Below, one piece after another: positions 15,182 through 62,531 of a DNA stretch of 64,000 nucleotides. Location: contig NC_092677.1 in NCBI RefSeq assembly GCF_964355755.1, positions 14,282,101-14,346,100 on the forward strand, in the 5' to 3' direction. A program made the position numbers and the translations under genes. This DNA comes from Antedon mediterranea (taxonomy: Eukaryota > Animalia > Echinodermata). A model generated the notes under the pieces. The model saw only the letters and a program-made list of their open reading frames with translations. It made no database searches and was not told the origin of the DNA. How positions within the stretch are numbered: the first letter of the stretch is position 1; the number at the start of each line of letters is the position of its first letter.

Positions 15182-16694
15182 TAATAATAATAATAATAAA
15201 TAACATTTATAAAGCGCAAGAGACAAAGGTTTCAAAGCGCTGTGTTTTCCAAGATCAGTGCAAGTAGTAGCGTGCGATTATGCTTCTCTGAAGAGATGAG
15301 TTTTGAGTTTAGTTTTAAATGTGATAACAGATTTTGATGAGCGTATTTCGAGTGGTAGAGTGTTCCAGAGTTTTGGGGCTGCGACAGCGAAAGCACGATC
15401 ACCGTAAAACCGAGTTCTGGAACGGGGTCCAGGTTTTAGAAGAAGTCTGCTGGATGAACGAAGCGAAGAGTTGGTTGACGGAGTAATGATGTCACATATG
15501 TAGGCTGGAGCACATCCGTTGATGGCCTTATATGTCAGCAACAGGATTTTAAAACGAATGCGCTGATCAACAGGCAACCAGTGTAAGTCACGTAAAACGG
15601 GAGAAATATGTTCATGTCGTTTAGTGCCAGTGATAAGTCTTGCGGCGGAATTTTGGATTCGTTGAAGAGGAGACAGATAAGAAGTTGGTAGGCCGTACAG
15701 AAGCGAGTTATTACAGTCCAGACGAGATGAAACAAAAGCATGAACAAGACGTTCAGTTGATGTTTTGTCAAGGTACTTACGAATCTGGCCGATCTGGTAA
15801 ATTCCAAAGGAAGCACCACGGCAAACATAACGAATGTGTTCTTTTAAACCGAGGCTGTTGTCTAGTTGGACGCCTAGATTTCTGGCTGAGCTGGAGGTAG
15901 AGACACTAGTATCTCCGATATGGACCAAAGGAAATGATGATGCCTCACGGAACTTTGAATGAAAATGGATCATTTCAGTCTTGGAGTCGTTGAGCATGAG
16001 TTTATTTTGAATGGCCCATGAGCGAACATCTGCAATGCATGATTCAAGGCTGTTAACAGATTCAGAGTGATGTGTAGGTTTCATGATTAAATATAGTTGA
16101 GTGTCATCTGCATAGATCATATGACGAACTTCCGGGTGGGAATCAATGATGTTGCTGAGTGGTCCAGTGTATAAGATGAAATCGAGTGGACCTTTTACGG
16201 ATCCCTGTGGTACACCCCAGGGTAGAGCGAACTCATCAGACATCGAATCACCCACAATGATTGCTTGTCTACGATTCTCAAAATATGAAATAAACCATTT
16301 CAATGCGGTTCCGCTTATGCCGTATCTTTTATGAAGACGTTGAAATAATAAATCATGATTGATAGTGTCAAATGCTGCGGAGTAGTCGAGTAGAATAAGT
16401 ACCGCTTCATTACCTTTGTCTAAAGCAAGTAGTAGATCGTTTGTAACACGTAATAAAGCGGTTTCAGTTGAGTGGAAGCGGCGGTAGGCTGATTGGACTT
16501 TTGAAAACAGGAAATGTTCATCCATATATGCTTTTATCTGAGCAGTTGCAATTCTTTCCAAGACTTTGAAAAGGAAGGGAAGATTTGCTATTGGTCTATA
16601 ATTTTGTAGGACGTTGGAGTCGAGATTTTGCTTTTTCAACAGTGGCATAACGAGGGACAATTTAAATGCAGATGGTACAGTACCTGATGACAGT
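15182..16694 (-). mobile_element. 5'-truncated non-LTR retrotransposon (L2/CR1 group) with intact RT reading frame
   Basis: ORF 15278-16660 has NYRPIANLPFL, QSAYR..HSTETALL, LLDYSAAFDTINH, GVPQGSVKGP, YADDTQLY and LHWLPV. It is followed by a short 3' UTR stem-loop (GCGCTTTGA...TTGCGCTTTATAAATG) and a (TTA)n tail. No endonuclease domain or ORF1. Confidence 0.95.
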
Positions 16695-18190
16695 CCTACA
16701 CCCCTATTTAATATTTTGTATGTATAATTGATAAACTTTGAAATTCAGAGCCGGATACAGTACCATAATGATGTGGTAAAATACAGACTTCCTATAGAAA
16801 AGATTGTACCGTATATGACCTAGAAAATCCCATGTGATCGAGTAAAAATCCCACCACTAATTTAGGTATTATCCCACCCTTAATTTAAGTCAACTTCACC
16901 ATTAAAGGGAAATCCAAATGTAACCCCATCATTAATGTTTGCCAAATTCTTTGTTCTATAGACTACAATATTATGAAATACATACAGTACCTACATTAGT
17001 TACACAATTATATTTAATTTGATACGAGATATAATATATTTGTGATTTTGTATTGATACAAGTATATCAAGATGCTCACAGTATTATACTTTACTTTAAA
17101 AAATAAGCACCACTACTAAAGTGCACTAAAACATATAAAAACAACTTGTTTTCGATCAAGGTTTAAAAGACTATAAAACTATTTGCCAATACTGCTATAA
17201 CTACTGTACTACTGTTTGTATAAAAGTTGTCTGGAGTCACTAACCTTTGACCTTAGAACGTATTAAAGTTGCTGTCGCTTTATTCTTCTCCCACTATGGA
17301 CTATTCTTGATATATTTGACTAGCATTTTAGGAGCAAATATATTTGCCATGGTTATACACAGAAAGAGTGTTATTTATATAATTTAGGGTGCCTAAAAAA
17401 TTGGCACCTTGTTTAAAAAAAAAACTATTTATATTATAAAATAAAGATTTATAGACACATTTTTAATTAAATTGTTTTTTAAATCACTGTAAAAAAGGCC
17501 TGTAATAAAAAGATCAGTAAAAATCAAATGTTTATAGAAATAAACGTTTAAATAACTAATTATTGTACAATGTTTATCAATAGTTTATCTATTTTTTAGC
17601 AATTTAAATTGGAAAAAATGTCCAGTAATGATATCAAAATGTTGTTGTTTCACGGTAAAATGCATGGCGGTATAAAATTGTTACTGTATATCTTCATGGT
17701 ACATTACACTATTCTGACATGATATTCATAAAGTCATAAATTTTCTTTTTTTTGATCCATATAAATGGATTTGACTTCTAGTGCATACCTATTATACTAA
17801 ACTGCATTTTCAGCAGCTGAAATATTTGACATTCTACAGTATACCACCTGGCAGCTGAACAGATCATACACAAATACAACCAGTTGCGAAGTCATGAATC
17901 CCAGAAAAAAAAGAGACATGAAACAGCAGTTACCAGAAGGTAGCAACTATACTCTCTACTATACTGTGGTTGAATAAAAGTATTTTATACCTCAATGGTC
18001 TGTTGATGATATGCTACATTAAATTACTGTAAGGCTCTGTCTACACTATCAAACTTTATGTGACAAAAAAATGTGATGTCATATCACTACCATATTTAAG
18101 CATATCACTACCTTATTTGGGGACATCAAACTAGTTTTATAGTGTAGACAGAGCTCAAAGATATAAACATATTAGAACTCCTTAATTAAT

Positions 18191-22717: not shown

Positions 22718-23579
22718 CTTTAACCTATTAGTACTAATTAGAAATTTACATAATTATTAATGCTTCAGTTAACATATATAGGCCTATACAATCCACAATT
22801 AGGCAGCGGATAGTAAACATAAAGGTACATGTTGCCACAAGACACAAAAGAGAAGGAAGGCAGAGTAGCACAATTTGAAATTGCGCAAATCATTCCAATC
22901 CCGCATATATAGGCCTAGGCCTACCCTATTTTAATTTTATCTGTAAAACACACAGTCGATTATTATGTCTAATATTTAGAAAACGTCGAATTAACCGGCT
23001 ATTTTATACAGTATTATGTACAGCAGCATTGGAAATATATGTTCCATTCTGTTTTTTAAAAATGTAATGGTACGAAACGACTTGGAAAATAGCACTGGGG
23101 TGGAAAAATAAAGTTTAGGTACCTGATCACTGGTGAATGATGAGGCCTGTGTCTGTGTTGTGAGAAGTGGGATGGGCAAAAGAAATTAGTGTTTGCTTTA
23201 TCATTACCCTTTTATTATAACCTAAAATGAATTTATCTTTTTTATCAGGAATTGTATATAGGACAAATAAACTTAATATTATATTCAACAACATTACTTA
23301 CCGTGAAACAAGTAAAAACTATCTGTTTAAGTCCTACAAAACATCGGATTATGATTTTTCAATGATCTCACTCCCGGATAATTGCTACCACCCAAGAGTA
23401 GAAATTTGCAGTCCGCAACGATCAACAATATAATATTCTCCTATCGTCTCACGTTTTCTCATCGGTCTCAAACGTTGTTTACACATGGTTTGTGTTTAGA
23501 GATCATTCTTCAATTTATATTGCTGATTTATTTGTGTAAAATGTCAAATTTAAATTAGTTGTAATATATTTAATATAAA
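22718..23579. promoter_or_regulatory. Bidirectional promoter and 5' UTR region of ZDHHC3/EXOSC7
   Basis: Start codons are divergent and ~860 bp apart; a minus-strand donor ACG|GTAAGT near 23300 suggests a non-coding ZDHHC3 exon. Confidence 0.65.
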
Positions 23580-26500
23580 ATGGCATCCATATCGTTAAGT
23601 GAAGCTGAAAAGACATTTATAATCCATGGTATACAGGTATGCCACAACATTTATGCTAGGCTATCTGCTCCGCAATTTCATTTGTTTCTCGCATCAGCAG
23701 ATATACCGGGAGAAACGTCTGGTATGCGCTGCCTAATTGTTGATGGTGTAGGCCTAGCTATAATCAGTATTATTAAATGTAACAATGAATATATCTCTAG
23801 TCTAGGCCAAGTTCTAGTACTCCCCATTTGAATAAAATGATCTCCTAATTTATACCTTATTTATTATTAACCACCTCCCCCCCCCCCCCAACCCTTCTTA
23901 ACAGTTGTGGGCGGGGGGGGGGGGGGGAGGTTTTTTAGTATTGACTATTAAAATATTATTGCGGCAAAAACTCAGATGTGATTCTCACAATTAAAAAGGT
24001 TGTAAAACAGGAACCTATATAAACAGCAATTAAATCCTTATCTTTTTTTTTTCTTTTAAATTTCTATTTAAAATGTAGGATGATTTACGTTCTGATGGCC
24101 GAGAATGCGAAACCTACAGATTAATAGAGGTCGAATGTGGTCTTGTATCCAACTGCAGTGGGTCTGCTAGACTCAAGCTTTCAAACACTGACATTCTTGT
24201 AGGAATTAAAGCTGAGATGGGAACTCCTAAAACCAACCTACCTGATGAGGGTTATTTAGAGTTTTTCGTTGACTGTTCTGCAACAGCTTCTCCAAAATTT
24301 GATGGAAGAGGAGGAGAGGACCTGGCTTCAGAGATTGCTACTACCATGGCAAGGATGTATGGTAGTACTAAGACTTTGAACCTTAAGGACTTGTGTATTT
24401 TGTCTGGAGAATGCTGCTGGGTCTTGTACATTGATGTAGTGGTACTAGAATGTGGGGGTAACTTATTTGATGCGGTTTCACTGGGAATTAAAGCAGCCCT
24501 AGCTGATGCAAGGTGGGACTGTCATTAACTTGATAAAACTTTGAATTACTAAATTCTCAATTAACATTTCTTAATTAACATTTCTTTTTATAATGTAAAT
24601 GAAAATGTATGAAAAAATAACCTGTTTAGCAGAATCACTGCGTTGATACAGCTTTCATCTCCCCTAGGGGGCCCCTCTGTGTCGAACAGCCATCAAACAG
24701 CGCTAATTTGTCTGTCCACAATGAACTATGGTCGAGAACAACCTCGAACCTTTGTCAATTTTATCATGGTATGCTGTAATTTGTTTAATACTAAATCAAT
24801 CAAACCTTTACATTACCCATGTATGTTGTGTACAACAATTTGGAATTTTTGTTTACCATATTTAATGAGGGTGATCCATCCAGCAATTGCTGATTATTAG
24901 GGAGGACCCTCAGAAATTTACAAGACAAACATATACACAAGATGCTCTACATAAACAAAGTCTTAGTCTTTGGGAGTGGAGTTGTAATTTTGTCCCTAGA
25001 AAAAATCCTGACAATTGATGGGGGACCCTTGGAGTAGTAGCCAAGCATCATAACCACAAAGCCACAACTCCACTCTGTGCAGAAAAAAATCAAAGCATTT
25101 ATTACACACCACCAGTGGCATAATTGCTATGAATGCTCACTGACTAAATTCAGAGATTAAAGGGCATGAGCAACCACAATGCAACTACTCAGCATTGGAT
25201 AGTGGCCCCTTAGAATTTCCCTTGACCCCTACAGTACATTCTGCCACTGCACACCACCCGACCAATAGTTGTGAAATCTAGGTTAATTTCTTCAAATAAA
25301 TTGTTCAGAGTGACAAGTTATCTTCCATGTATAATTTGTTCTAAATATTAATTACTTAATATTATAAAACGGCCCTTTTGGTTAGAATTCCCAAGGTGAC
25401 TGTGCAGATGGACGATGAAGGAAACCAGGAGATGGATGTATCTGAAGATCCAGATGACTGCTACAGATTTCAAACAGATATGGTGCCACTACTGGTGACA
25501 ATAAACAAGGTACAGTATCATAAGTTCACAAAGAAACAAAAAATCATCATATGCTTGATTGAATTGAAATATATATATTTATACTGGGTAACCTCTTCAG
25601 TCAAAGACTGCTCTCCCAGAGGGCCCAGTTGGTGATCAGTGGCTGTGTAGTACTAATACACCGGGGTAACCCCCTACTCGTCTCGAAAGATGTACTAGGT
25701 TCTTTAAAGTGCACACGAGCTAGATGTGTACACTGGACCTACGGTTTATAGTCCATATCCGAGAAGACTCGTTCTACCACCAGAACCATGGAGTGAGTGA
25801 GCCTCGAACCCCTGCTGATGTTATGGCTACGTAATTACGGTTCCACTGTTTCAACCGCTCGGCCACTCACTCACTCATATGCATATGCTTTTGTCTAGTG
25901 ATTCTTCATGTCTACAGTGTGATATTTTTTTTCAACTCAACTTCTAAATACTTTTTACTATGGATTGATGACTATTAATGTAGGACAACGATAAAAGGTG
26001 CTATTAGAAAGAAGTCAATCCTATCTTCAGAAAAAGGTTGATGTTCTATTTCTACTCACCAGATGTTAAATCCATTAGTAATAGTTTGAAAAAGCAAATG
26101 TGACCGAGTGTGTGCAACTTTACAGTATGCTTACAGATACTGTACAAGAACAATTTAACAGTTCACAAGGGAACAGGCTTTGCCATTATCTGGAAGGAGG
26201 CAATGCGATGTAGTTTGTGTACATACCTTTTCCCATGTGACAAATAAGATCATGTTTCGTAAATCAAAACAGCTTATAATTTGGGACGAGGAAGGCATCC
26301 CAGGAGCAGTATTTCACTTCTCCGTGTAGGCACTTGGACAAACTCCCTATTATCATTTTATCTGATCCGTTGAGGCTACACATAACATCTTATTTTATTC
26401 CATGCTTTTTATAATTAGGTAAATCAAAAACATATAATAGATGCAACAATAAAAGAGGAGGCATGTAGTCTAGCCTGTGTAATAATGAGTGTGATGCCGA

Positions 26501-26836
26501 AAACTGGTAAAATAACATCAATCGTTAAAAAGGGATCTGGAAGCCTAGATCCGGACAGCACAACAGATATGATACAGGTGGGTACTTGTTTTGGTCTTGC
26601 ATTGGTCCAGTTGTGTAATGGTTACGAGTTAAATATTGCTTGGAAAAGTAAAGCAAATCAACACTGTTGATTCGCCTAGTGGAAAGATTTTAGAGAAACT
26701 GACTGAACTTTTATCGATTTTATTTTGTTAGTGTGGAAAACGTGTTGCAGACTTGCTGCATACAAAACTTAGAAATATCTTGTTGGAGATTGAAAAGTCT
26801 GGCGACAATGTAGAGAAGGTTGGTTTCTTAGCATAA
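23580..26836 (+). CDS. EXOSC7: Exosome complex component RRP42, 292 aa
   Basis: Exons 23580-23636, 24079-24512, 25386-25509, 26419-26577, 26732-26836 (879 nt). Sequence MASISLSEAEKTFIIHGIQDDLRSDGR..FFVDCSATASPKFDGRGGE..CWVLYIDVVVLECGGNLFDAVSLGIKAAL..KVGFLA. Confidence 0.96.
25113..25249. mobile_element. hAT-type MITE
   Basis: CAGTGGCA...TGCCACTG termini with a perfect 8-bp TSD CACACCAC (25105-25112 and 25250-25257). Confidence 0.8.
25588..25876 (-). mobile_element. tRNA-derived SINE
   Basis: The minus strand begins GAGTGAGTGGCCGAGCGGTT (A box) ... GGGGTTCGAGGCTC (B box), followed by a non-tRNA body. A partial copy of the body lies at ~55021-55150 in the opposite orientation. Confidence 0.8.
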
Positions 26837-28262
26837 CAGATTGTTCGATTGCACCAAATTGTCTGTGAAGTTGTTTGCAATGAGGAATGGACTGTAGCAG
26901 ATCAAGTGATGATAGGATATATTGCTGAGAAGAATTGATTTGATTGCAGGTCAAAATATGCATAATATCTCAAATCTTGCTTATGCAACAAACAAACAAT
27001 GTCAGAGAACACTATGTATAAGTACAATAAAAACGTTTATTAATCAACAGTTGACTGTACATTAAAGCCAATACAGTTGGTTTAAATACTAATTGGAAGA
27101 CAATATCACTACATTAAAATAAAACCTTATACAGTACAATTCCTCATGATTATCTTGACATATATAACAGTATTAAAAAATGAAATCAAAATGCTTAATA
27201 CAATTTTACCAAACATTAAATTACTAGGGTGGGTGTAAAAGCAGGGCATGCCAACTGATAAAAACCAGGTAATTGTACACCAACGAGGGTACTTTCACTT
27301 TAATTTAATCCATCATACACCCATCCATGAATCATAAGTGTCATGTAATTTATATAAATGATTAAACACTAACGTGAACAAGGTTAATATATGGCCTAAC
27401 CACCCTAAACAAACAATCTTAAAAACCCTGGATGTTTTATTACGTCATATCTAGCCTAATGTCTGCATGAATGACATTAAACAAAAATTAAATTACTGTA
27501 AAAAGTAAAAAGACACACTGTAAATAATACATGCATGGGTAAAACTTAGCATTGGATAAAACATTATTTTTTAGCATTTCTTTTACTTACAAAATGGTAA
27601 AATACTTTTTTCTTAGGTCTTAAATGTTTGATTCAAAATTTAAAAAAATATACTGTATTAAGTGTTATTTTATGGCTTATTATTTTGTTATAATTTGGAC
27701 CTAACATTTTGGATTTAGGAGATTGTTATCAATTAATTTTTATATATTTTCTTTCTTTTTAAAAAAATATTCAGCTTTGAAATAGTTCAGTCCACTTCAC
27801 TTATTGTTTCCGATTGGTTTTATGCAAATTCAAAAAAGTTCAAAGATATTGAATATTTACATATTTTTCCAACTAGTTTAATAATTATATTAATACTGTT
27901 TAATGTTCCTGAGTCAAGTAGTTTAGTAGGCTGCCTACTTCAATCTAAGCACTATTACAATTTTTCATTTTTGTGGGCCTTTTTTTTTGGACCATGTTAA
28001 AGTTATTAGCAGTTATTAAAATAAATACTATATAATTGTGTTTACTCTTTCAAAAATGTTAGTTTACTGGAGTAACTGAAGTCAGAGTGATTTTGACATG
28101 ATCTCTTAAGCTATGTATACACTATCAAACTAGTTTGACAAAAAGTGATGTGCCCAAATACGTTAGAGATATGACATCATCGTGTCCATATATGGGCACA
28201 TCACTTTTTTTTTTACATACAGTTTGATAGTGTAGACAGAGCTTCACCCAACAATTATGTGT

Positions 28263-31200
28263 TCATTTCTGAAATGTTATTTGATGCTCATCACTAACCT
28301 TATATGGTAATGACAGAAAAACAATAACAAATATCATGATCAAGCAAAATACATAAAAGAAAGACTTCACAGGGCACGTCTTTGTATTCGAACATACCTG
28401 CAAAAAAAAGACAAACTCTATAACTAATTATGTACCATTAACTAAACTCCGGTTTTTCACGATCTCCAACGTGCCAATTTACTTTTACTTGAAATGCGTG
28501 TGGTGCATGTGAAAGACCTGTTTAATATGTTGCTATATTGTTAGTATTTTTATGACATTTTAGAACCACTGCAGTACTGCTTGATTAAATAACCAATACA
28601 TAAACGAAAGTAAACACATTTTTATGTAAAATTGCAAAGAATGGCCAAAACGTAGATTTTTATTTGAAAAAACATCACCTGAATTCAAAATCATATTCCT
28701 CTTGTTCCTGGTATGTTTTAAAACAATTATTATTTGTTTACACTAAAATAAATATACAGTATAATACAGTACCTTTGATGTACCTCTGTGATACTTTGAT
28801 GATGTCATTTGTGAAAGCTCTTCTGATTGTGGCATTGACGTCTGTACATTCTCACTCATCTTCCGCAACCTCACTGACCGTCTGGTTAACGGCGTGGGTC
28901 TTATTTCTGTTTCAGTGCTTTTTGCCGTTACTGCAGTTATTGTTTTTTCCTTTTTATTAAATGTCTTCTTATTGACTGTTTTCAATAGTTCTGTTTTCCC
29001 CTTTTTTTTTTTTTTTTCCCTTTTGGCATAAAATGTTTGAATGGCCTCCTGACAGTCTGTAAGATACTCCTCTGGTTCCCATGAGTCATTGCTGTGGTCA
29101 TAGTTTTTCCATTGAATAAGGTATTTCTTTCCTTTTTTTGTAACCCTAACATCTAAAACTGAATCAACCTAATAAAAGAAAGAATTTTTTTTACAGTTAA
29201 TTTTAGCCTATTCAGTACTGGGACAGATCCACATTTTGAGGAAGGGGTGTTCATGGGGGAATCCGGACCCTGAATATTATATAATAAGGCGCCCTTTTAT
29301 TATTAATAATTAGGCCTTACTAGAGGTAGGCTAGGCCTGTATTTCTAGTATGGTTGGCCTAATATAAAAAAAATATAAGGCCTATACAGTAGTACTACTA
29401 GCCTAGGGCTAGTAGGGCTAGCAATCAGGTGCCGTTTTCGGGCCAGTTTAACCTGTATGGACTATACCATTATAAAAAAGATGAGAAAATAGGGGTGTCC
29501 CATTCATTGGTGTGCTAATTTGTTAAAATATGCTGCTTTTGTTCAAGCTTCTATCTTTTGTTTGTGTCCCAAACAAAGGTAAAACAACTGCGCCCTGCAC
29601 TTTTAATTTATTGATTTATATACTGTATACAGAAAGTATATAAAGAAATTGATTTTTATCCCAGTTACAAATACAAAATATAATACCAGTATTTACTAGT
29701 CATAAAATAAGTGACACACTTAAAACCAAAAGAAATGAAACCCAGAATCATTATTAATTCACAATGCGTTGTGTACAAATTTCAATGTGGTTTACTATGT
29801 GATACAAAGTATGTCTGTTACACTTGCCGACACCTTTACAAACGCATTAATGAACATTATTTATTATTATTAAAAGTATTATAGGCGATCACCTAAAACA
29901 ACATGGCATAACCATGGAGTTATAAAATTAGATTAATTTTATAATATATTTTACTAATACTAGATATCTCAGAATACTTTAAATGTAACAATAAGTTTGA
30001 CAATTGCCTTATTAAGGAGATGCTGTGGATCAAAGAGTTAAAACCTACACTCAATAAACAATCGTATTCCATCTTGAAGCTAAATTGTTTATCTAACTCA
30101 GTAGGAGGAGCTAATTACTTTCATTAGCCCTCAGTAGCATTTCCTAGCACCAACTTTGGTGCTTAGTGCACATAATTAATAACATTTTGTATTTACTTGA
30201 TCTTGAAAATGGTTCTATGATGGTACCGAAACGCCGATCTCTCTTTTTGTCAATAAATTTTATATTGAAACTAATCAATAACAATACAATACATTCACTA
30301 AAACAAATCATTTTCAATTTTTTAATAATACAGTGAGATAGCAATATTTGCTATTATGATAGACAATTTTAGATGTGTTTTACATATATTGAAATTGAAA
30401 TGGTTTATGATTTTTAAAACTGTGAACAGCATTGTTTAAAAAAAATAAAATGTGTATGTACGGACTTGTCACGATAAATATGGTCCGGGGACAAAATCGG
30501 TCCGGCCGGACCAGTTTTGGCTCTAAAATTGTGGCCAAAAGCAGTCCGCCACTGCCAAAATCGGTCCGGGCTTTTCTTCTGTCGATTTTAATTGAATTAC
30601 TAGGCCTATGATGCTGTTTTAAGTTGTTTATGGCTAGAAAAATATCCCATGATATTAGTAAGTTATCTTGTCGGATAAATACTATAAATAAATGTATTTT
30701 ATCTAAAAACATGACTTAGGTGTTCACTCATATTTCGGCCTGCCACACACTCACACGAACGGGTATGAGACGCTGATATTGCCAGCTAGATTTTATTTAT
30801 GATTGAGGCCTTTTTCCTTCCTCAGCCTAATCAATATTGGATAATTGTTTTATAATAATTGTATTGAATTGATATATTGATTGATTAACCATAAATAATT
30901 AATAAATTAAATTGTTTTTAACATCATGGGGAAACGAAGATGTTAAAAAAGAACAAAATGGATTAAAAACAGGCAGAGATACATATTGTATACAAAAAGA
31001 CTAACAATTACAGTAGTACTAATTATTGATGAGTTACTACTAATAATGATAATAAAAAAAACAGGCTTAATTTATAATATTAAAATAACAAATAAAACCC
31101 CATAGTTTTCAATAAATGACTAATCATGGCCTTTTTTTAATGATATATACATTATGACTCATTTTGCACACCATATATTTGTTAGACCGGACCATATTTG

Positions 31201-33756
31201 GCGGCCAAAAACAGTCCTACTGCCCGGACCGATTTTATCCAGGCCGGACCAGTTTTGGCGGCCAAAATTGGTCCGGCCGGACAGGTTTTGGCAGCCATAA
31301 ATGGTCCCCCGGACTGATTTTGGCAGCCAAAACTGGTCCGCCGGACCGATTTTGGCCCGGACTGATTTTGGTGTGACAGACTTATATCGTCGCCGTTTCG
31401 ATATGTACAACTGGTTCTTTATAAAACCACTCTCTTATCTCTATAGTTAAAAGATAAAAACAGAAAATAAAACATACATTGATTTCTGGCAATTTTCTGA
31501 TTCTAAAATGGCCCCAGTTTAATCAAAGTATTCATGAAAAAGGAGCTGTTTTGAAAGGCATTTTTATTGTGATAATATTAAAGATGTATTGTCCCTTTGA
31601 CTAATTCAACAAATTTTTTTTTTATATTTCGAAAAAAAGTGGGTCATTTTGAATTGAAGTATCATAATAGTTATTAACTTTCACCAAAAATTAATTTAAC
31701 CAAAATACAGACGTTTTTTTTAGAATTTAGAATATTTTTTTTTTCATTTGTTGTGTTGGCGCTACTGCAGTTTCGCACCACACTGTTATATCTTCGATTT
31801 CTTGCTTCATTTTTTTCTCGCACTCACATCATACAATTTTGGGCCATTATGTAACATGTTCCCATGATTTAGCCACCGTTATATTACCTTTATCACAATA
31901 AAAAATGCCTTTCAAAACAGCTCCTTTTTTCGCGAAAACTTCGATTGAACTGTGGCCATTTTAGATTCAGAAAATTGCCAGAAATCAATGTATGTTTTAT
32001 TTTCTGTTTTTATTTTTAAACTGCAAAGAGTGGTTTTATAAAGAACCAGCTGTACATATCAAAACGGTGACGATATGAGTCCGTACATAAAACATTGATA
32101 GGAACCATTAATATAAATAATAATAGTAATAAGTAATAATTAAATATTAATTTAACCTTTATTTCGCCAGCTGAAAACATTTCTTGCTTTTCAAAACTAA
32201 ATAGGGTAGGCCTATATGTGTAATCGGATTTTATAACACTGCCCTCTATAGTTTCTACAATTTTTGGGGTAAAATGAAGCATAAATTCTGGCAATTCAGT
32301 GATAAATATAAGATGGCGAACATTTCGCAGTGTGTTGACAGCGAGTTCAGTATTGTTTAAAATGTTTTGAAAAGTATTGTTATTTAAAAAAAATTACTTC
32401 GTAAGTGGTCGAATCGTATAAACATGTTACATAATACGCCGTACATAATATTATGTTGTGAGTGTAAAAAACGAAAGTTTAGGTGAGAAATCGAAGATAT
32501 AACGGTGTGATGCGAAACTGCAGTAGCGCCGTTGTGTTTTAATAAGGGACAATACATCTTTAATAAAAGGTAATTTAACGGTGGCTAAATCATGTGAACA
32601 ATACATGTTACATAATGGCCAAAACAAAATTGATTGATGTGGGTGTGAGAACAGATTTAGGCCTAGGCTAGTAGGTCCTACTAGGCTTTAGGTAGCTAGC
32701 CTAGCTAGCCTAGCCTACTACTAGCCTAGCTAGGCTAGCCTATAATAATAATGTTATGCGCGATTTGAACGATTTGCGCAATTTGAAATTGCGCAAAAAA
32801 ATCCTTGCGCAATTTGAAATTGCGCAAAGAATTCTTGCGCAATTTAAAATTGCGCAAGGATTTTTTTGCGCAATTTCAAATTGCGCAATCAACTTGCGCA
32901 ATTTCAAATTGCGCAAGAAAATCTTTGCGCAATTTTAAATTGCGCTGCACAATTTGTCAATTGCGCAAGATAGTTCTTGCGCAATATGACACCTTTGCGC
33001 AATTTGAAAACGAACTGTAAATTTTCCCATACATGGCTAGGCTAGGCCTAGGCAGAGGAGTTTAAAATTTAGTATTTTATTATATAAATAAGACCATTTC
33101 AATGAAGATAATGTTTAAAACTCACTTTTTAAGTTTTTAATATTAGTTTAAGCTAGGCCATGTAACCTAGTCAGTATCAGTAGTCCAGACCCTAGCTAGG
33201 CTAGAGTAGTATAGACGGCCGCCCGCGCCGCGCCCGCCTGGTGGAACACCACCGCTTCGTTTCCCTTCGTCGGTTCTTCGACGGTATGCTAACTTATAAC
33301 AATATTTGCAGTACTAAAATAAGGAAATGCGATATTTATCTTTAAGTTTGAATCATTCTTAGAAATTACTATAAAAATATGGGTGTGCATGATTTCACAA
33401 TCTGTCGAAAAACCTTGCGCAATTTGCAGATTACTTGCGCAATTTAATACGTTGCTTGCGCAATTTGAAACACATGTTTCAATTCAAATTGCGCAAGGAT
33501 TTTTTTTGCGCAATTTCAAATTGCGCAAATCGTTCAAATCGCGCATAACAATAATACTTTAATATTAATATAGAGGGGGCCTAGAGAAGAGAGTCCGTGT
33601 TTGTTGGTTAGAGGCATACCTACATAATAGCATAGGCTTAGCCTACTGGCTAGTACAGTACTACATTATTATTATTTATCTAACAACCCCTAAATATGTC
33701 ATATTTTACAAGCCTAGGCCTAACCGCTAATAATTTACCTCGTAAATGCCATCCAT
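28263..33756 (-). CDS. 182-aa CDYL/CDY-type chromodomain protein with basic linker and C-terminal transmembrane helix
   Basis: Exons 33756-33739 (MDGIYE, GAG|GTAAAT), 29168-28773 (132 codons) and 28397-28263; all phase 0. Chromodomain YEVDSVLDVRVTKKGKKYLIQWKNYDHSNDSWEPEEYLTDCQEAIQTF; tail SFFYVFCLIMIFVIVFLSLPYKVSDEHQITFQK*. The chromodomain is certain; exon 3 is inferred from its acceptor and frame. Confidence 0.8.
30467..31378. mobile_element. Non-autonomous DNA transposon with TGT...ACA ends and 4-bp TSD (Ginger-like), copy 1
   Basis: Termini TGTCAC...GTGACA, TSD GACT (30463-30466 and 31379-31382), subterminal GGTCCG/CGGACC arrays; near-identical to 56100-58325 in inverted orientation. Confidence 0.85.
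31578..32563. mobile_element. TTAA-flanked MITE (Kolobok-like) nested in an inverted copy of its own family
   Basis: TTAAAGATGTATTGTCCCTT ... AAGGGACAATACATCTTTAA termini. The flanks (~30450-30466, 31383-31577, 32564-32650) reconstitute the reverse complement of internal 31820-32095. Confidence 0.7.
32752..33550. mobile_element. Foldback element with TTGCGCAA arrays, TGT...ACA ends and 4-bp TSD (Ginger-like)
   Basis: TGTTATGCGCGATTTGAACGATTTGCGCAATTTGAAATTGCGCAA and its exact reverse complement ending at 33550; TSD ATAA; about 20 TTGCGCAA octamers. Confidence 0.85.
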
Positions 33757-34477
33757 TTTTTCCAATTTCCCTCCTCTTCTTTTTCGTGTTTTTTTTTCGC
33801 GCGCATACACGACGTCGTCACACACCCGAGGGCTAGAGAGAGGGCGTATGATATTATAAGTGAAACGACTGGATAAAAGGCTAGTTGTTATTGATGATTG
33901 CCAAGTGATAAAGTTGTTTTTAGCTAAAATAACGCGAAAATGTTTTAAAACCATGTATTTTGGTTCCTAATATATTGATTATACATACTAAATAGACAAC
34001 ATGGGCTAGTAAAATACATAAGGTATGTATATATAAATTAACCTCTGTTATAAAAGAACATATTTTAGTGTGATTTGTAGACTAGACTCTCTACTACTAC
34101 CTACTAAATAGGGCTCCCCTATAGGCTAGCTGGCTAGAGAGTAGGTAGGGCCTAGCTAGTAGCCTACCTAGATAGTATAGAGGAGGAGGCTAGACTCTAG
34201 ATTAGGCCGGCCTACTTTCACCTAGAGGCCTACTAGCTTGACCTACTACTACTATTAGGCTACATCTGTCCTGTCTCTACTACACACCAGACAGGGCAAT
34301 TTTTAGGCCTAACCTTATAGGCTATAGTAGTAATACAAAATATCTCTACTGCCAGATATTTATTTTACTCTCTACTACTAGCCAAATCAACTGTTTTTAT
34401 TTTTTAAAATTTATTTTAGAAAATTGTCTGTGGAATGCCATCGGATCATTTTTGAATTTATAAACTTTAACAAATGG

Positions 34478-36043
34478 ATGGGTTTGTCTGATAACAAAAC
34501 AAATAAAAATATGTATAACAAAAAATGTAGCTTCAGTGCAACACCTTTACCATGGGAACAAGAAAATTGTCCGGAAGATGCTAGTGAAGAGCGCAGTGTT
34601 ATCAATACGCTATTAAAATTTAGTGAAAATGAGGAGTACTTTCATCAGATTATCAATTGCCAAGAATGGGCAGAAGCAGTGAATGGATGGAAGGCAACTG
34701 TGCCTAATCCTAAGTATATAACTCTTTCTTCTACACCACAAGAAGAGAAATCAAACAAACGACAGGATAAAGAGAATAAAAAAGAAAGACAAAACCACAG
34801 AAAGGGTCTTAATCACGAATTATTATGGCGAAACAAGATTGAGCCTGGGACGTATCGGTATAATCCACGCTATAATCCAGATTATGCGTGGAAGTTTAAG
34901 GGACACAATACAACAAGAATGTATACCAACATCCAAAAACGAGCAACTGATCCGCAATTGGTAGAACATATCGAAAGAGTTCGCGAACATCTTGAAAAAA
35001 CACTCATGAAGAAAGATTCCAGCCAAGTAACAAAAGATGTAAATAAAGGAGAAACACTGCAGTTTAATAAAACCAATATTCAAGATTTTATATCACAATT
35101 GTCGGAACACAACCAGAAGATTTCTGATCACATGCCTGTGCGAGTCTCACAAAGTCTAACAGATTTGAAGGGTTTAAATGATAAATCATTAGTTTTGCAA
35201 CAGACAAAAATACAACCACTACAGGATGCCCAGCCTTGCCATTTGAACTCCGACAAAGTTGCAAAGGCAGGCGGCGATTTTAACTCAAAACTTGAAGAAC
35301 CACAGTTACCGTTTGTCACAGTCATATCAAAGAAACAAATGGATATAAATCGTGACGGTGTGGGGGATAATAATAAAGTTGTATCTGTGAATCCTCTAAC
35401 TTGCGACATTCAAGAAAAAAAGGACAATGTTGTTAAAAGAATAAAGAAAACTCCAGAGAGACATAGCGCTGATAACCTGCCTACAGCAAATCTAGCTTGT
35501 AGGAGTTTTGAAAAATTTCCAGCCTACACAATACCACAGCAAGATTTAAATCCATTGAAAAAACTCACTCCATCTATGAGAAGAGTTTCGGATAATAATG
35601 AAATTATTATGGTTCATTTAAACGGCAGCCGATTTGACTCTTCTCCGTCATCGGCGCCCCCAGCATTGTCAACTGCAGTTGAACGCACACCTGTTAGTAA
35701 AGAGTCTTCGCAGCAGTATTTCACTACAGTAGATGCTCCAAATAAAAATTTCATACACTCAGGAATAAGCGGTAAGTCTGTGTCGCCAGGAAATCTACGA
35801 AAATTGAAAGGTACATCTTCTAGGTTGGTTACAAAAGATACAAAGCCATCTAGAAAAACACCGACAACTCCTCACAGACTTGCTAGTCTTGGTAAGCCCA
35901 GCGACTATGCAGCAAATTCTCTTCATTCCCTGCACAGAGGTGCCTTTGAAAGAGACGCAGCGACTGCCATAGCATCCGAGATTCTTCCAGGAATAAGTGG
36001 TCGTAAGGTCGGTGTTCCCGTATTAAGCCATCGTGTTTTGTAA
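34478..36043 (+). CDS. C16orf46: C16orf46-like uncharacterised protein, ~521 aa, single coding exon
   Basis: CPEDASEERSVINTLLKFSE...EWAEAVNGWKATVP and C-terminal ILPGISGRKVGVPVLSHRVL resemble my recall of the human C16orf46 N-terminal (CPDGKSEKNHVYCLL..GWEEAVQGWGRTSP) and C-terminal (..VIIPVSTHRIL) blocks. Tail-to-tail with ATMIN. Acceptor at 34419 and an upstream non-coding donor at 34022. Confidence 0.7.
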   Translation: MGLSDNKTNKNMYNKKCSFSATPLPWEQENCPEDASEERSVINTLLKFSENEEYFHQIINCQEWAEAVNGWKATVPNPKYITLSSTPQEEKSNKRQDKENKKERQNHRKGLNHELLWRNKIEPGTYRYNPRYNPDYAWKFKGHNTTRMYTNIQKRATDPQLVEHIERVREHLEKTLMKKDSSQVTKDVNKGETLQFNKTNIQDFISQLSEHNQKISDHMPVRVSQSLTDLKGLNDKSLVLQQTKIQPLQDAQPCHLNSDKVAKAGGDFNSKLEEPQLPFVTVISKKQMDINRDGVGDNNKVVSVNPLTCDIQEKKDNVVKRIKKTPERHSADNLPTANLACRSFEKFPAYTIPQQDLNPLKKLTPSMRRVSDNNEIIMVHLNGSRFDSSPSSAPPALSTAVERTPVSKESSQQYFTTVDAPNKNFIHSGISGKSVSPGNLRKLKGTSSRLVTKDTKPSRKTPTTPHRLASLGKPSDYAANSLHSLHRGAFERDAATAIASEILPGISGRKVGVPVLSHRVL

Positions 36044-48799: not shown

Positions 48800-49846
48800 T
48801 TAATACTGTCCATCAATCCTTTTCTGTTGCTGTTCTGTGTCTGTTATTGGTTTTAAATATTGCAATATAGAGGTTATTAGTTCACTTGTTCTTTTCTTAA
48901 CCTGCTTAAAAAAGGGATGAGCCAATAGCACGGCAGCACTCGGCCTTTCCATAGGATCTCTCTGCAAACAGACGTCAATAAATTGATGGAATTGCGATGA
49001 AAACACTCTTGTATAGGGGTTTGAACTGTTTCTACTTGATGATGGCCGGTTGCCAACTGTGCCGCTTCCTATACCTGAATCCGCCTGGGACATTAATTGT
49101 TCCTCTCCAAGAGTGGTAGCATCCAACAGTTTTGGTGTAGTGCCATTGATTTTCTCCAATAACATTTTAGTTGATACCATATCTGAAAATGGTATGCAGC
49201 CATTGGCTAGTTCGCATGCTGTAATTCCAACACTGTAGATATCGCTTTTTGTGTCGTAACCAAGTAAATTCTGCTCTAGTATTTCTGGAGCAAGCCATTG
49301 TAAGTTTTTGACAGCTTTGCTCGGAAAATCATGAATTGCTCGCAGTCGCTGACCATCCTTGACCATGCTCACCACTGTGTTGAGTCCAGTTACAACAATG
49401 TGACCATTTTGTGACAGGAGAATGTGACTGCTTTTGATACTGCGATGAATAAATCCCATCTTGTGAATGTAATCAAGTGCTGTAAGAACATCACGGATTA
49501 TGTACGCAATAGAAATTTCATCCAATCCATCCGGGAAGTTTGCAGAAACAATATCTTGCGCAGATCCGTAATTCATAAGCGGCATAACTTCCCATAATTC
49601 ATGATCACTTACGAATGCGCAATGATAGGTAAGAAGATGTTCATGCTGTAAAAGCCTCTTCTGATGAAACTCATGTTGCAAGTTTGTAAATGATGTGGTG
49701 TCCGAATCTAAATTCGTTTTCCGCACGGCAACAAAAGTGCTCGATGGCGTGTGGTGAGCTACATAAACTGCATTAGCTAGGCCGAGACCTAGCCCAATGT
49801 TTGACAGCAATTTATAATGACTGGCATCTGGTTCGTAGACAACCAT
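48800..49846 (-). CDS. STRADA: STE20-related kinase adapter (STRAD) pseudokinase, intronless, ~348 aa
   Basis: YEPDASHYKLLSNIG, VAVRKTNLD, ELWEVMPLMNYGSA, LDYIHKMGFIHRSIKSSHILL (HRS for HRD), VTGLN (no DFG), WLAPEILEQNLLGYDTKSDIYSVGITACELANG, MLLEKINGTTP. First ATG at 49846. Confidence 0.92.
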   Translation of the reverse strand: MVVYEPDASHYKLLSNIGLGLGLANAVYVAHHTPSSTFVAVRKTNLDSDTTSFTNLQHEFHQKRLLQHEHLLTYHCAFVSDHELWEVMPLMNYGSAQDIVSANFPDGLDEISIAYIIRDVLTALDYIHKMGFIHRSIKSSHILLSQNGHIVVTGLNTVVSMVKDGQRLRAIHDFPSKAVKNLQWLAPEILEQNLLGYDTKSDIYSVGITACELANGCIPFSDMVSTKMLLEKINGTTPKLLDATTLGEEQLMSQADSGIGSGTVGNRPSSSRNSSNPYTRVFSSQFHQFIDVCLQRDPMERPSAAVLLAHPFFKQVKKRTSELITSILQYLKPITDTEQQQKRIDGQY

Positions 49847-50154
49847 ATTAACCCCAAAATAATGTTTGATAGCAAGGTGAAAATCTAATGTTACAAATAG
49901 TGGTACTTTCAAGTTCAAAATTCAGAAAATAGAAACTTTAACAGGTAAATAACCATGGTCAAAACTGTCTTCATTAAAAAAGATGGCCTGGAAAAAAATC
50001 TGGGATTTTCAGAGGAGGCCCTCTCTCGGTGATATTTTTTTGTTAAAAAAGTCGAGCGATTGTTGTTTGTATCGCATGTTTTTAGGTTTATATATAGGCC
50101 TATTCTTATTCAAAAGAGCATTTACATCATAAAAATCATTTACAATTACAAACA
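49847..50154. promoter_or_regulatory. Compact bidirectional promoter STRAD/CTNNBL1
   Basis: Divergent ATGs ~310 bp apart; YY1-like AAGATGGCC at ~49980. Confidence 0.65.
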
Positions 50155-53100
50155 ATGGATGTTGGAGAATTACTACGCTTTAACGTAAGTTTTTCGTACA
50201 AGAAATACTATTTTTTTTACAATTTTGCTAGGGTAGTTTTAGCTGGACCTTGTTCGATGTTGTATCGAATCGTCCGCGGCGGGAAGAAGACCATGTCTGC
50301 CGCAATGTGCATTGTTGTTTGGATTGGATGGCCTGGCCTAGCGCGTGTATGGGCGGATCGGCTATTATTGAAATTGAAGATTTTCTTTTTGCCAAACCAG
50401 GCGCGCGTCGGACATCATGTTATTTAGTAAATTTAAAGTAGAGATTATAGATCTACATTTTAGCCTGTTTCACTCAGTCTGTATTATTTATTAATAATTA
50501 TATTCTATTTCTATTCATTATGTATTCAATTGTATATAAATTTAATTATATCACAGCCTGACAAGCCAGACTTGAAAAGAAAAACAACAAATGATGAAAC
50601 ATCTGTTGAATCGAAATTGAAGCGGTCAACCGGTGAGGTGACCGGCAATGAACTTACAGAAGAAGAAAGAGAAAAGATACTGCGCATGGTGGAACAAGAA
50701 CCCGATGTAAGGACACAGTTGTCATATTTTTAACATTCAAATCAATTATTCAATTTAATTTAATGAATATATTACAGTACAATATATATGCGTTAAATCA
50801 ATGTTCTCAGTACCGTATCTATTTTTGTTTGTTTGTGCAAGAAAGGCGTGATAGCTGGTTTATGCATGGAGTTTTACTCCATGGTTTATGCACGAAAGGC
50901 AATAACTGGTTTGTGCAAGCAAAGCATGATAACTGGTTTATGCAAGCAAAGCATGATAGCTGCTTTATGCAAGCAAAGCAAGATAACTGGTTTATGCAAG
51001 CAAAGCATGATAACTGGTTTATGCAAGCAAAGCATGATAGCTGGTTTATGCAAGCAAAGCAAGATAACTGGTTTATACAAGCAAAGCAACAACTGGTTTA
51101 TGCAAGCAAAGCATGATAACTGGTTTATGCAAGCAAAGCATGATAACTGGTTTATGCAAGCAAAGCATGATAACTGGTTTATGCAAGCAAAGCATGATAG
51201 CTGGTTTATGCAAGCAAAGCAAGATAACTGGTTTATGCAAGCAAAGCATGATAACTGGTTTATGCAAGCAAAGCATGATAACTGGTTTATGCAAGCAAAG
51301 CATGATAGCTGGTTTATGCAAGCAAAGCAAGATAACTGGTTTATACAAGCAAAGCAATAACTGGTTTATGCAAGCAAAGCAAGATAACTAGTTTATGCAA
51401 GCAAAGCAAGATAACTGGTTTATGCAAGCGAAGCAAGATAACTGGTTTATACAAGCAGAGCAATATAACTGGTTTATGCTAGCAAAGCAAGATAACTGGT
51501 TTATACTGATTTATAATTTCATTTCAATTGTTGATAACTTCGGGCTGATGAGTAAACCACAAACAGTTAATCTCTTTTAAATGTGCTTAACCAAAAGTAT
51601 TGTGTTTATCTTGTTTTTATCTAGGGACCTGCAATGGATGAGGCAGACCTAAGACAACTTATACTCAGATTTGAAAAAAAGGTTTACAAAAATCAAGAAA
51701 TGAGAATCAAATATCCAGACCAGCCTGAAAAGTAGGGAATCAATCCTGTATTGCAACTTAAAAACAATATCTATAACTGTATATGGTTGCTACTATATTT
51801 ATATGATTTAATAATTTATTTAAATAAAGTTTTTAAAGTGTTACAATACATACATACACTCATAACTTATAGTACCTCTGAAAAAATAATTCTTAAACAT
51901 GTTTTGTTGTATATTACCATTTTAATGTCACTTATCCACTTTCACCAAAAAATAGATCAAAGTGCCGTGTTATATTATTTTATTTATTTTCTTGCAGATT
52001 CATGACATCTGAAGTGGATCTAAATGATGCAATCCAAGAAATGCATGTCATAGCCACTAACCCAAACCTGTACCATTACCTGGTGGATCTGAATGCAGTA
52101 AAATCCTTACTTGGTCTCATTTCGCATGGCAATACAGACATTTCTATTGCTGTCATAGACCTTCTACAAGAACTCACCGATGTTGATACTTTAAATGAAA
52201 GTGAGGAAGCGGCAGAGGCCCTAGTTGATGCACTGGTGAGTAAAGCTCTGTCTACACTAACAAACAAGTTTGACCAAATGTGGCCAAATATGGTAGTGAT
52301 ATCCTTAAATATGGTAGTTGATAGTGTAGACAAGGCTAAAGTAATAAACGTCATTCTACTGCAGTTGAACTCTTTACTTTTTTTAAGAAAATAAAACAAC
52401 AGAAAATCAGTGTAGGGTCCAGTCTGTACAAAATCTTAGATGTATTACCTATAGGTTAGATCCAGCTCCTCTACTTTTGTAAGTTAAAAAGACACTCAAG
52501 TTTATAAAAAATAGTGTGTTAGCCTATACTTTGATTGTGAGATGTATTGTAAACATTTTCTTTTTGCTATTTTTTATATAGTTTTTACAATTATTTTTAT
52601 AGTATTGTATTTTCAACATTCAATAATTTGTTTTTGTTTCAGCTTGAAGATCAAATAGTGGCAACATTAGTACAAAATTTAGATAGACTCGATGACAATC
52701 TCAAAGAAGAATCAGAAGCCATTCACAACACATTAGGTAAAAATCAAAGAATGTATATAAGGAGAGCGAAGTAAGTGATGCAGCCATATCACATGTTCCT
52801 TCTCTCCGTGGTGAATCACTTTTTTTAAAGCTGTGATTACATAGGAGTTAACACTGACTCTAGCTAATTATACAGCATCTTGAAAAAATGGAAGAGTTTA
52901 TATAAAGGCTAGAGAACTAACAGTAAGTGATGCCAACAGAGCAGGGTCACTGCAAAATGGTGATGCAGTCATATATATGACCCTTCTCCGTGGTGAATCA
53001 CTTTTGTTAGCTGATTACATTGGAGTCAAGACTCTAGCTAATTATACAGAATCTTTGACAAAAATGGAAGAGTTTCTATAAAGGCCAGAGAACCAACTAA

Positions 53101-60789: not shown

Positions 60790-62531
60790 TCAGTCTTTAT
60801 ATGATTTGTCTTGAGGTTCATAGTGAAAGAACTTGTTTCCTTCTATCTTCATTTTCGCTATTCGCTTAATTTGAAGTTCTATGTCATAGCCAAGAGCAGA
60901 CGCTCTTGTTCTAACTGTATACCTCCTTACTGGGAGTCCATCCGGTCCAACTAAAAATTTCTCAAAGTTCCACATTATGTCAGATTTGTTTAGCGGCGAC
61001 CACGTGACGTCATTTTGATTTTCTCGAAAGAGACTCTCCGAATTATCGCTAGTGACTGGCATACGATGTTTAAGAAATTCGAATATCGGGTCTGCAAATC
61101 CTCCGTTGACGTCACATTTTGCCATTACTTGGAATTTTGGAATGAAGTTGCATCCGGGCCTGACGTACTGAAGACACTTCAGGATCTCGTCATTCTCATA
61201 TGGTTCATTATGTCCGAATTGGTTGCATGGAAAAGCCAGAATAGTCAAACCTCGACTACCATACGTGGTAGCTAATTCATTTAGCTACAAGAAAACAAAA
61301 AAATAGTGATTAGATTTCATGTATAATTGCATTGCATTGTTTTTGTTACTTTAAAAGTGAAGTGAGCTATGGGCTGTTCAGAACCAATAGTGCAGTAGCG
61401 ATTAAGGAAAAGTAAAACTAGAACAAACAATTAAAGATACATGTCGCCTGATTTTTACTCGATGTACCCGAGTCTAGGACTCTTTCATCTTCTCCTCTTC
61501 CATCCGACACTATTGAGTAAAAAGTGCGATTTATAAAGTACTACTCCTCCCTTATTCGTTGTAGTATTGAGCTGGAATTTGGCATGAATATACTACAGGG
61601 ACATGTCCTCAAAGCTATAGAGCCGGATTTTTTAATTTCAAACCGGATGCAGCCATATGACGTCTCGAAGATGGTACCGTATTTGGTAGCGAGGTTATTA
61701 ATGTGTATGTGACGTTACATCCCGTCGTATGACGTCATTACAGCTTCTTTTGCTGTACCCCGAGTATCGCACATTCGTGCTTGTTTTATATTGTAATTTA
61801 ATAGGCCATTTTAATTTAACATAATATTTTATTGTAAAATGTTCCGTTTAGTCTTTAAAAAAAAATGTCTTCTGTTAATTTGTTAAGTGAAAGTGAATAA
61901 CTAAAACCACAATATGACCTATTTCAAACTTCATTCTATTCTTTAAATTTATAATTTTTTGGGCGGAGGGGGGGGGGGGTGTGAGGGTAGGGTTAATACA
62001 TTTTTAAAAGACATTTTCTCTCTAACACTACATTAGTTTAACCATGGTTGAACCTAGTAGTATAAGTACGTATATTCACAAATTAATCAATAGGCCTATA
62101 GCATAATCATTGGTTTTCAACAATTTAGGCATGAACAGTTATTTATGAATTCGTGTGGAAATACATTGTTGATTTAAAATCATGCACAGAATACTAATAT
62201 TGTCTGGACTATGATTTACCTGATTTAGTTCGCGTACACAGTGTTTATCTGCACTTGCAATATTTGTCAATAACACCATCTTGCCTTCAAACTTGGCAAA
62301 AGACATTATTTTTCCGTCTAACATCACACCAGATAGTTCATAGAGAGATCGCACGACATGTACTGGTAAAAGTTGTTCAGGCCTAGGCTGTGTGAAGTTG
62401 TCCTCTATATTCTTTCGAGGTATCCCAGGTAGAACGGAGCCCTGGTGGTTTAAATTTTTCTGCGAATGTTTCTTGGATACCAATGTGGCAACTCTAGCCG
62501 TTTGCCATGGCCGTTTTCTTTCGGCTGCCAT
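60790..62531 (-). CDS. Glutathione peroxidase (GPx1/2-like) homolog lacking the canonical Sec/Cys, 268 aa
   Basis: Exons 62531-62220 and 61284-60790 (phase 0). FEGKMVLLTNIASADKHCVRELNQLNEL..GLTILAFPCNQFGHNE..EILKCLQYVRPG..KCDVNG..PIFEFLK..WSPLNKSDIMWNFEKFLVGPDGLPVRRY. Confidence 0.9.
61480..61786. mobile_element. Dispersed repeat family (unclassified), copy 2, in the GPx-like intron
   Basis: Reverse complement of 18605-18905. Confidence 0.8.

Follow-up and report, generated by a model that had tools for sequence, protein, structure and literature searches.

Proteins that hold chromatin at the nuclear envelope, or are anchored in its inner membrane, are known from several systems, of which LBR, CEC-4 from Caenorhabditis elegans and the tail-anchored proteins emerin, LAP2beta and LRRC59 are compared here with the product of a chromodomain gene of the crinoid Antedon mediterranea. 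The gene lies on the minus strand of the 64,000-nt stretch of Antedon DNA that was analyzed (the window, whose positions are used throughout) and encodes 182 amino acids that comprise an N-terminal chromodomain, a linker with an HMGN-like motif and one predicted transmembrane segment near the C-terminus. We propose, with moderate confidence and from sequence and structure modeling, that this protein is a tail-anchored tether of the inner nuclear membrane, which would hold methyl-marked (H3K9me/H3K27me) nucleosomes to the envelope.

LBR has a chromatin-reader domain, a basic phospho-regulated linker and membrane anchoring in the same order as the crinoid protein, and its N-terminal domain together with one transmembrane segment is reported to be sufficient for envelope localization (PMC5617974). 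It differs in that its reader is a Tudor domain recognizing H4K20me2 and in its HP1 binding, its RS domain and its eight membrane segments, whereas the crinoid protein combines a chromodomain, an HMGN-like motif and a single segment, and Pfam finds only Chromo in it. Neither the LBR-type Tudor domain nor the multipass sterol-reductase part gave a Pfam match, and only one hydrophobic segment is present.

CEC-4, which was compared by description, is likewise a chromodomain protein. To our knowledge it lacks a transmembrane helix. CEC-4 is described as binding H3K9me1/2/3 and anchoring the marked chromatin at the inner nuclear membrane; it reached the rim without needing lamin or any of the known membrane proteins that were tested, the passages concerned name no anchor, and it is said there to have no obvious mammalian homologue (PMC4783997).

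A LEM domain was not matched by Pfam in the crinoid protein. LEM-BAF is the route by which emerin and LAP2beta reach chromatin, and we know of no methyl-lysine cage in emerin, LAP2beta or LRRC59. The likeness of these three proteins to the crinoid one is in layout: the soluble N-terminal part is small, a single helix lies at the C-terminus and the tail is short (PMC6359192).

How animals hold H3K9-methylated chromatin at the nuclear periphery is still an open question; in a 2025 paper the direct recognition of H3K9me2/3 by lamin A/C and LBR is given as unknown (PMC12339402). No described chromodomain-transmembrane protein was found in the literature searched, outside which most subscription papers lie; the matches, judged from their listings, concerned LBR, CEC-4, PRR14, other envelope proteins and unrelated topics. 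The crinoid protein is a real and conserved domain combination, undescribed in the literature searched, and the putative tether would be akin in concept to LBR, CEC-4 and emerin.

Gene structure and splicing

An initial annotation, made from the DNA alone, had assembled three phase-0 exons into a 182-residue protein, and this structure stands. The coding exons measure 18, 396 and 135 nt (Table 1); all are in phase 0, and both introns run from GT to AG. Together the exons translate into 182 amino acids and a stop, letter for letter the RefSeq protein XP_071958502.1 (Antedon mediterranea, 'uncharacterized protein').

Five sequencing runs over the region were available, four of which were aligned to positions 28000-29300. 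None is recorded as RNA; the RNA status of X1, which comes from another study than X2 to X5, is a guess. Contigs of this kind lose rare variants, and minor isoforms may go unseen. The second splice joint is bridged by record 7 of X1 (658 nt), which aligns to 29170-28770 (record positions 78-478) and then to 28394-28215 (479-658). Its joint, taken from these aligned pieces and absent from the 15 of 67 joint rows that are listed, equals 28773^28397 once three letters that fit either side are taken into account; 401 letters of the record precede the joint and 180 follow it. The record therefore includes the exon at 28397-28263, the skipping of which the initial annotation had named as a refutation, and it runs through both the stop codon and the donor-like site at 28299. 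That site, proposed earlier as an alternative donor, scores 8.2 against 7.8 and 5.2 for the real donors in a rough matrix and is unused in the one spliced contig seen.

Record 7 begins with 77 letters that diverge from the genome at the acceptor of intron 1, suggesting that an upstream exon is spliced onto exon 2. The joint 33739^29168 is inferred; if the 77 letters are exon 1, the transcript would reach about 33817. Since contigs of the DNA-like runs X3 and X5 continue unbroken through intron 2, this intron is present in DNA, and no joined copy of exons 2 and 3 occurs in these two runs among the matches listed. Most of intron 2 and the start of intron 1 are not covered by X1, an observation that was not used alone. 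X1 differs from the window at four positions in exon 2; the three that are listed (one synonymous, E40K and T87M) spare the cage, the HMGN-like motif and the helix.

Retention of intron 2 would introduce an in-frame stop after 9 codons, as computed from the sequence, and this bears on a second view of the protein. It could be a membrane-sequestered reader on the endoplasmic reticulum (ER) or the outer nuclear membrane, either freed by cleavage or an isoform switch or binding methylated non-histone proteins. The retained-intron product would be such a soluble form with 9 extra residues, the strong donor-like site lies just past the membrane segment, a long linker of low model confidence separates reader and anchor, and CDY-type chromodomains are reported to bind non-histone ARKS motifs as well (10.1101/820647; PMC12035754). 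We consider this quite unlikely, because neither a retained-intron nor an alternative-donor contig of X1 is found among the matches listed, no conserved cleavage signal was recognized, and the small size of the protein allows direct access to the inner membrane, where the proposed tether would act.

Conservation in Anneissia japonica

The only full-length relative found is XP_033110030.1 of the crinoid Anneissia japonica, 195 amino acids long and named 'chromobox protein homolog 1-like'. In the chromodomain 35/51 residues are identical between the two proteins, as are 11/36 in the first part of the linker, 16/16 over residues 92-107, 6/33 in the second part of the linker and 13/30 over residues 141-170, which hold the cysteines and the membrane segment. 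The C-terminal ends align with a score of 82 against 22.6 +/- 4.9 for shuffled sequences, a value reached by 0/1000 shuffles. Both proteins have C-x5-C-P followed by a 21-residue uncharged segment, with a hydropathy of 2.79 in Antedon and 2.22 in Anneissia, so that the hydrophobic segment, whose conservation the initial annotation had left to be checked, is kept in the orthologue; the tail of the Anneissia protein is 3 residues long.

These results bear on the possibility that the fusion exists only in the annotation, or that T-rich DNA was neutrally exonized and so became attached to a chromodomain gene that had been truncated. In favor of such an origin, a hydrophobic frame follows 5 of the 52 acceptor-like sites in the AT-rich window (overlapping matches counted), and a repeat element lies close behind the stop. 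It is nevertheless largely refuted, and in our judgment highly improbable, as the spliced contig spans the joint by 401 and 180 letters and the protein sequence of exon 3 is conserved in Anneissia beyond any of the 1000 shuffles. Because hydrophobic frames arise by chance that often, the membrane exon rests on the spliced contig and the orthologue and not on hydropathy alone.

Chromodomain

The N-terminal chromodomain recognized at the outset, with all three of its aromatic cage residues, was confirmed. Pfam Chromo (PF00385) matches residues 5-53 with 59.7 bits in Antedon, and the Anneissia protein scores 48.6 bits, against a curated cut-off of 25.1. The cage is Y5/W26/Y29 in Antedon and Y/W/F in Anneissia. 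By sequence match to the PDB the closest solved relatives are CDYL (best, E=3e-14), CDYL2, CDY1 and MPP8. The three residues align with Y7/W29/Y32 of CDYL2, and CDYL1b is reported to require the corresponding cage for colocalization with H3K9me3 (10.1101/820647). The Ala-pocket positions V7, I24, W26 and L42 are also kept, and the clasp is formed by I4 together with T43 (V in Anneissia), both sets being mapped by eye. The clasp is thus uncharged, unlike the charged HP1 pair and nearer to the L-L of CDYL2, which suggests that the crinoid chromodomain may tolerate both K9 and K27, as CDYL does.

A structure model from 26 sequences reaches a predicted local distance difference test (pLDDT) score of 96-98 over residues 11-60 and has the canonical three strands and C-terminal helix. 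Foldseek returned 49 matches at E<=0.001, CDY, MPP8 and CBX chromodomains among them, with a probability of 1.0 to CDY, MPP8 and CBX1. This model replaced an earlier one from two sequences, which had a pLDDT of 52 and no Foldseek match at the same threshold.

CDY and CDYL are therefore the best matches of the crinoid chromodomain in both sequence and structure, but the crinoid protein differs from them in lacking an enoyl-CoA-hydratase-like domain (Pfam), its chain ending at residue 182 with the stop covered by the spliced contig, and a tree of 56 columns does not join the crinoid pair with CDYL. Of 538 domains extracted, the tree holds 59, which come from 44 chosen proteins and include no echinoderm paralogues; it groups the two crinoid proteins (99/93), leaves the deeper forks unresolved and, among these 59 domains, places the pair with no subfamily, whether CDYL, HP1, SUV39 or Gypsy integrase. 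At E<=0.01 there is no match to the chromoshadow domain of HP1 proteins (CBX1/3/5; PF01393) and no second Pfam family of any kind where a Polycomb CBX protein would have its Pc box, the C-terminus being the hydrophobic helix. Judged by their defining domains, the crinoid protein is not a member of the CDY, HP1, Polycomb, LBR or LEM families.

Membrane segment and C-terminus

The 21-residue hydrophobic segment and 12-residue polar tail described in the initial annotation were recovered. The uncharged segment has a Kyte-Doolittle 19-mer mean of 2.79, the next best stretch of the protein reaching -0.15, and a helix over residues 148-167 is modeled at a pLDDT of about 90 in the 26-sequence model. 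By hydropathy the protein has the layout of a tail anchor, with a single hydrophobic segment near the C-terminus, a short tail and no hydrophobic signal at the N-terminus. The net charge before the segment is +3 or +4 in the two crinoids (+3 in Antedon) and that after it is 0; a basic N-terminal side and a neutral C-terminal side are the usual pattern of ER-type tail anchors. The cysteines next to the segment are possible palmitoylation sites.

A third account holds that the hydrophobic tail is not an envelope anchor and either enters another membrane (Golgi, mitochondrion or lipid droplet) or packs on a partner protein. The membrane span is supported by hydropathy scales and the AlphaFold helix only, the segment of Anneissia is weaker (2.22) and followed by just 3 residues, and the conserved cysteines could redirect trafficking. 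The 21 uncharged residues in both species, with their basic N side and net-neutral C side, point the other way, and two chromatin-type modules would be hard to explain elsewhere in the cell; we regard such a destination as very unlikely and retain the envelope as the place of the putative tether.

Linker and HMGN-like motif

The K/R- and S/T-rich linker is as first described, residues 55-150 containing 26 K/R and 26 S/T against 8 D/E, and its low confidence in the 26-sequence model indicates that it is probably disordered. The run KREKKKKKGK, taken earlier as resembling a nuclear localization signal (NLS), is present; its standing as a conserved key feature was rejected. The counterpart in Anneissia is KAKKDEIEKQ, the Antedon run lies on a poly-A stretch, and it is modeled inside the long C-terminal helix of the chromodomain, for which reasons it is unlikely to be a key element.

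The most conserved feature of the linker is instead one that the initial annotation had missed, an HMGN-like block at residues 92-107 in which a TP site precedes the core RRSVRL. A run of 16 identities was reached in 0/200000 shuffles of the linker columns. RRSVRL, with its three arginines, serine and leucine, is present in both crinoids; the pattern RRSxR[L/I] was produced by 17 and 3 of 100000 shuffled linkers, and 1/220 other chromodomain proteins fetched has it. RRS is also a generic site of basophilic kinases.

The motif fits that by which HMGN, Dsup and Dot5 bind the acidic patch of the nucleosome, matching R1, R2, S3, R5 and L/I6. The published forms are RRSARLSA in HMGN, RRSSRLTS in Dsup and RRSARIAT in yeast Dot5; in the accounts given, HMGN2, Dsup and Dot5 bind the patch through arginine anchors, Dot5 depends on R6, R7 and R10, and phosphorylation of the HMGN2 serine is modeled as repelling the patch (PMC12487698; PMC13347269). 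The V at position 4 of the crinoid motif is not among the three variants quoted there. These three are soluble proteins, whereas the crinoid motif lies between a chromodomain and a membrane anchor. AlphaFold 3 is described as poor at modeling the acidic-patch interaction (PMC12487698).

The strength of this block is the ground for a fourth view, in which the protein is a nucleosome binder in the inner nuclear membrane, recruiting ER membrane to chromosomes when the envelope reassembles; the motif would then bind independently of any mark, and the positioning of heterochromatin would be secondary. An acidic-patch-type motif with phospho-sites is indeed the best conserved element (16/16), HMGN binding is described as independent of DNA sequence and proposed to fall upon serine phosphorylation (PMC12487698), and the chromatin binding of LBR is reported to be phospho-regulated in mitosis too (PMC5617974). 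Both species, though, retain the methyl-lysine cage, implying selection for reading a mark, and on balance a role mainly in reassembly seems unlikely to us.

Proposed function and mechanism

The gene structure, the splicing of exons 2 and 3 (in one contig), the intact cage and the conservation of three modules in two crinoids are the observations on which the proposed tether is built. Emerin-type tail-anchored proteins are described as entering the ER once they have been translated; membrane proteins whose soluble portion stays below about 60-75 kDa are said to be able to diffuse to the inner nuclear membrane, where binding can retain them (PMC6359192). By analogy, the C-terminal helix would be inserted into the ER post-translationally with the N-terminus toward the cytosol, and the soluble part, computed at 17.3 kDa, would by its small size allow diffusion past the pore and on to the inner membrane. 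Retention there could come from a two-point grip on the nucleosome, in which the cage takes the methyl-lysine of an ARKS tail while the RRSVRL arginines dock in the H2A-H2B acidic patch and the basic linker lies on DNA. Phosphorylation at the TP and RRS sites of the invariant block may release chromatin in mitosis. Given the conservation of all three modules, the size limit and the precedent of LBR, an inner-membrane protein with two-point binding is the simplest account.

Several points weigh against the tether. The splicing evidence is a single contig, the run it comes from is RNA only by a guess, and the RefSeq model, which may draw on the same data, was not counted as independent. The membrane segment is called by simple hydropathy scales, and a tail anchor by itself fits the inner nuclear membrane, the ER or other membranes alike. 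The third cage residue is F in Anneissia, adjoining a 2-residue deletion, and the NLS-like run is not conserved. Because of the generic kinase consensus noted above, the invariant block could be a mere kinase or partner site. Finally, only two orthologues are at hand, both from comatulid crinoids.

A 182-residue chain with a reader, a nucleosome anchor and a membrane helix would be a ready-made reagent whose modules can be mutated singly. In mouse stem cells deficient in lamin and LBR, or in cec-4 worms, it could serve to ask whether mark reading at the membrane is enough for peripheral heterochromatin. Few non-vertebrate users of the HMGN motif are listed so far, and with this protein a membrane protein would join them.

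Distribution of chromodomain-plus-membrane proteins

Orthologues in other echinoderms, hemichordates or amphioxus, which the initial annotation had suggested looking for, were not found by homologue and profile searches. Homologue searches at near lengths returned only the two crinoid proteins (2/158 and 2/111 candidates). A search for longer proteins gave 71 chromodomain-only matches, 0 of which reach a hydropathy of 2.0, so that nothing points to a longer fusion of the LBR type, weak as this evidence is. An exhaustive profile search was examined for the best 150 of 5294 matches, mostly multi-chromodomain proteins, and further chromodomain-plus-membrane proteins may therefore exist. ESM Atlas gave no usable feature match for the whole protein or for the C-terminal half of the Anneissia protein, and a metagenome scan with the crinoid alignment yielded 3/71 chromodomain-only loci at 38-40% identity.

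Among these best 150, 3 of the 147 further proteins have a stretch with a hydropathy of at least 1.8, which is C-terminal in 2; the third (P0199) has it at the N-terminus and was set aside. In P0221, a metagenomic JGI/IMG record of 172 amino acids, a single chromodomain (Y/W/F cage) is joined to a K/T-rich linker with SP sites, and the terminal segment has a hydropathy of 2.36. The protein also contains a possibly amphipathic stretch, and a metagenome scan for it found it in 0/594 stretches. P0163 of the bed bug Cimex lectularius (XP_014255481.1, 275 amino acids) has three chromodomains and a terminal segment of 2.06 followed by an 11-residue tail, the same C-terminal end being present in a near-identical Logan-derived member (P0223); it is a candidate insect membrane-anchored multi-chromodomain protein. 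The RRSxRL motif is absent from both P0221 and the Cimex protein, and in the parts compared outside the chromodomain neither is significantly similar to the crinoid proteins, 47 to 289 of 1000 shuffles reaching the observed score. For these reasons their layouts look convergent with that of the crinoids, very remote homology being possible.

A bolder reading, which we offer tentatively and rather doubt as a whole, would make the crinoid protein a natural minimal heterochromatin tether, a 21-kDa protein integral to the inner nuclear membrane with a two-point nucleosome grip and a mitotic phospho-switch. The chromodomain-plus-membrane-anchor design would then have arisen repeatedly and independently, in crinoids, in the bed bug and in the metagenomic protein, and direct membrane-embedded readers of methylated histones might form a widespread and overlooked class.

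Feature coordinates and neighborhood of the gene

Table 1. Features of the crinoid chromodomain gene in window coordinates
Feature	Position	Strand	Remarks
Coding part of exon 1 (MDGIYE)	33739..33756	-	Agrees with RefSeq model and Anneissia IYEV stretch
Codon of cage residue Y5	33744-33742	-	In exon 1
Intron 1, 4570 nt, GT-AG	29169..33738	-	Short tandem-repeat arrays inside
Exon 2, residues 7-138, bulk of chromodomain and linker	28773..29168	-	Covered by X1 record 7
Chromodomain, residues 7-53	29028..29168	-	Pfam, PDB sequence matches, model, Foldseek
Codons of cage residues W26 and Y29	29111-29109; 29102-29100	-	In exon 2
Basic run KREKKKKKGK, residues 55-64, NLS-like	28995..29024	-	Not conserved
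Invariant linker block, residues 92-107, TP site and RRSVRL core (28883-28866)	28866..28913	-	16/16 identical in Anneissia
Intron 2, 375 nt, GT-AG	28398..28772	-	Missing from X1 record 7, unbroken in X3/X5
Coding part of exon 3, residues 139-182 and stop	28263..28397	-	Covered by X1 record 7, 0 differences
Juxtamembrane C-x5-C-P, residues 140-147	28371..28394	-	Conserved in Anneissia
Predicted transmembrane segment, residues 150-170	28302..28364	-	Hydropathy, model helix
Polar tail, 12 residues, predicted lumenal	28266..28301	-	Holds donor-like site 28299
High-copy inverted-repeat element, resembling a miniature inverted-repeat transposable element (MITE), in 3' untranslated region (UTR), ~20 nt past stop	28104..28244		Contig depth

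The MITE-like element just behind the gene has very high depth in all runs aligned, and several further copies lie in the window. A 1726-nt contig of X1 (record 1) extends below 28137, beyond the aligned stretch and toward lower coordinates; it may represent a long 3' UTR nearing the 3' end of a convergent RNase PH-type gene at about 23574-26670 (+), which we take to be EXOSC7-like. On the other side, about 600 nt from the start of the chromodomain gene, a divergent open frame of 553 codons (34382-36043, +) has no Pfam match and possibly shares a promoter with it. The tandem arrays of intron 1 at 32774-32945 and 31243-31371 have palindromic units, and the type of the latter array recurs near 56020-56330.

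Farther away, a reverse-transcriptase frame of 488 codons at 15278-16744 (-; Pfam RVT_1) is probably a non-long-terminal-repeat retroelement. A single-exon kinase-fold frame at 48800-49921 (-; Pfam Pkinase), presumably resembling a STRAD-type pseudokinase, stands between intron-containing genes and is perhaps a retrogene. A short-period tandem array at about 50800-51390, inside an intron of a CTNNBL1-like gene, contains several long repetitive frames on both strands. The glutathione-peroxidase-like gene at 60790-62567 (-; Pfam GSHPx) has, by eye, an Asp at the position expected for the catalytic Sec/Cys of the active-site motif, and is possibly a pseudo-enzyme.

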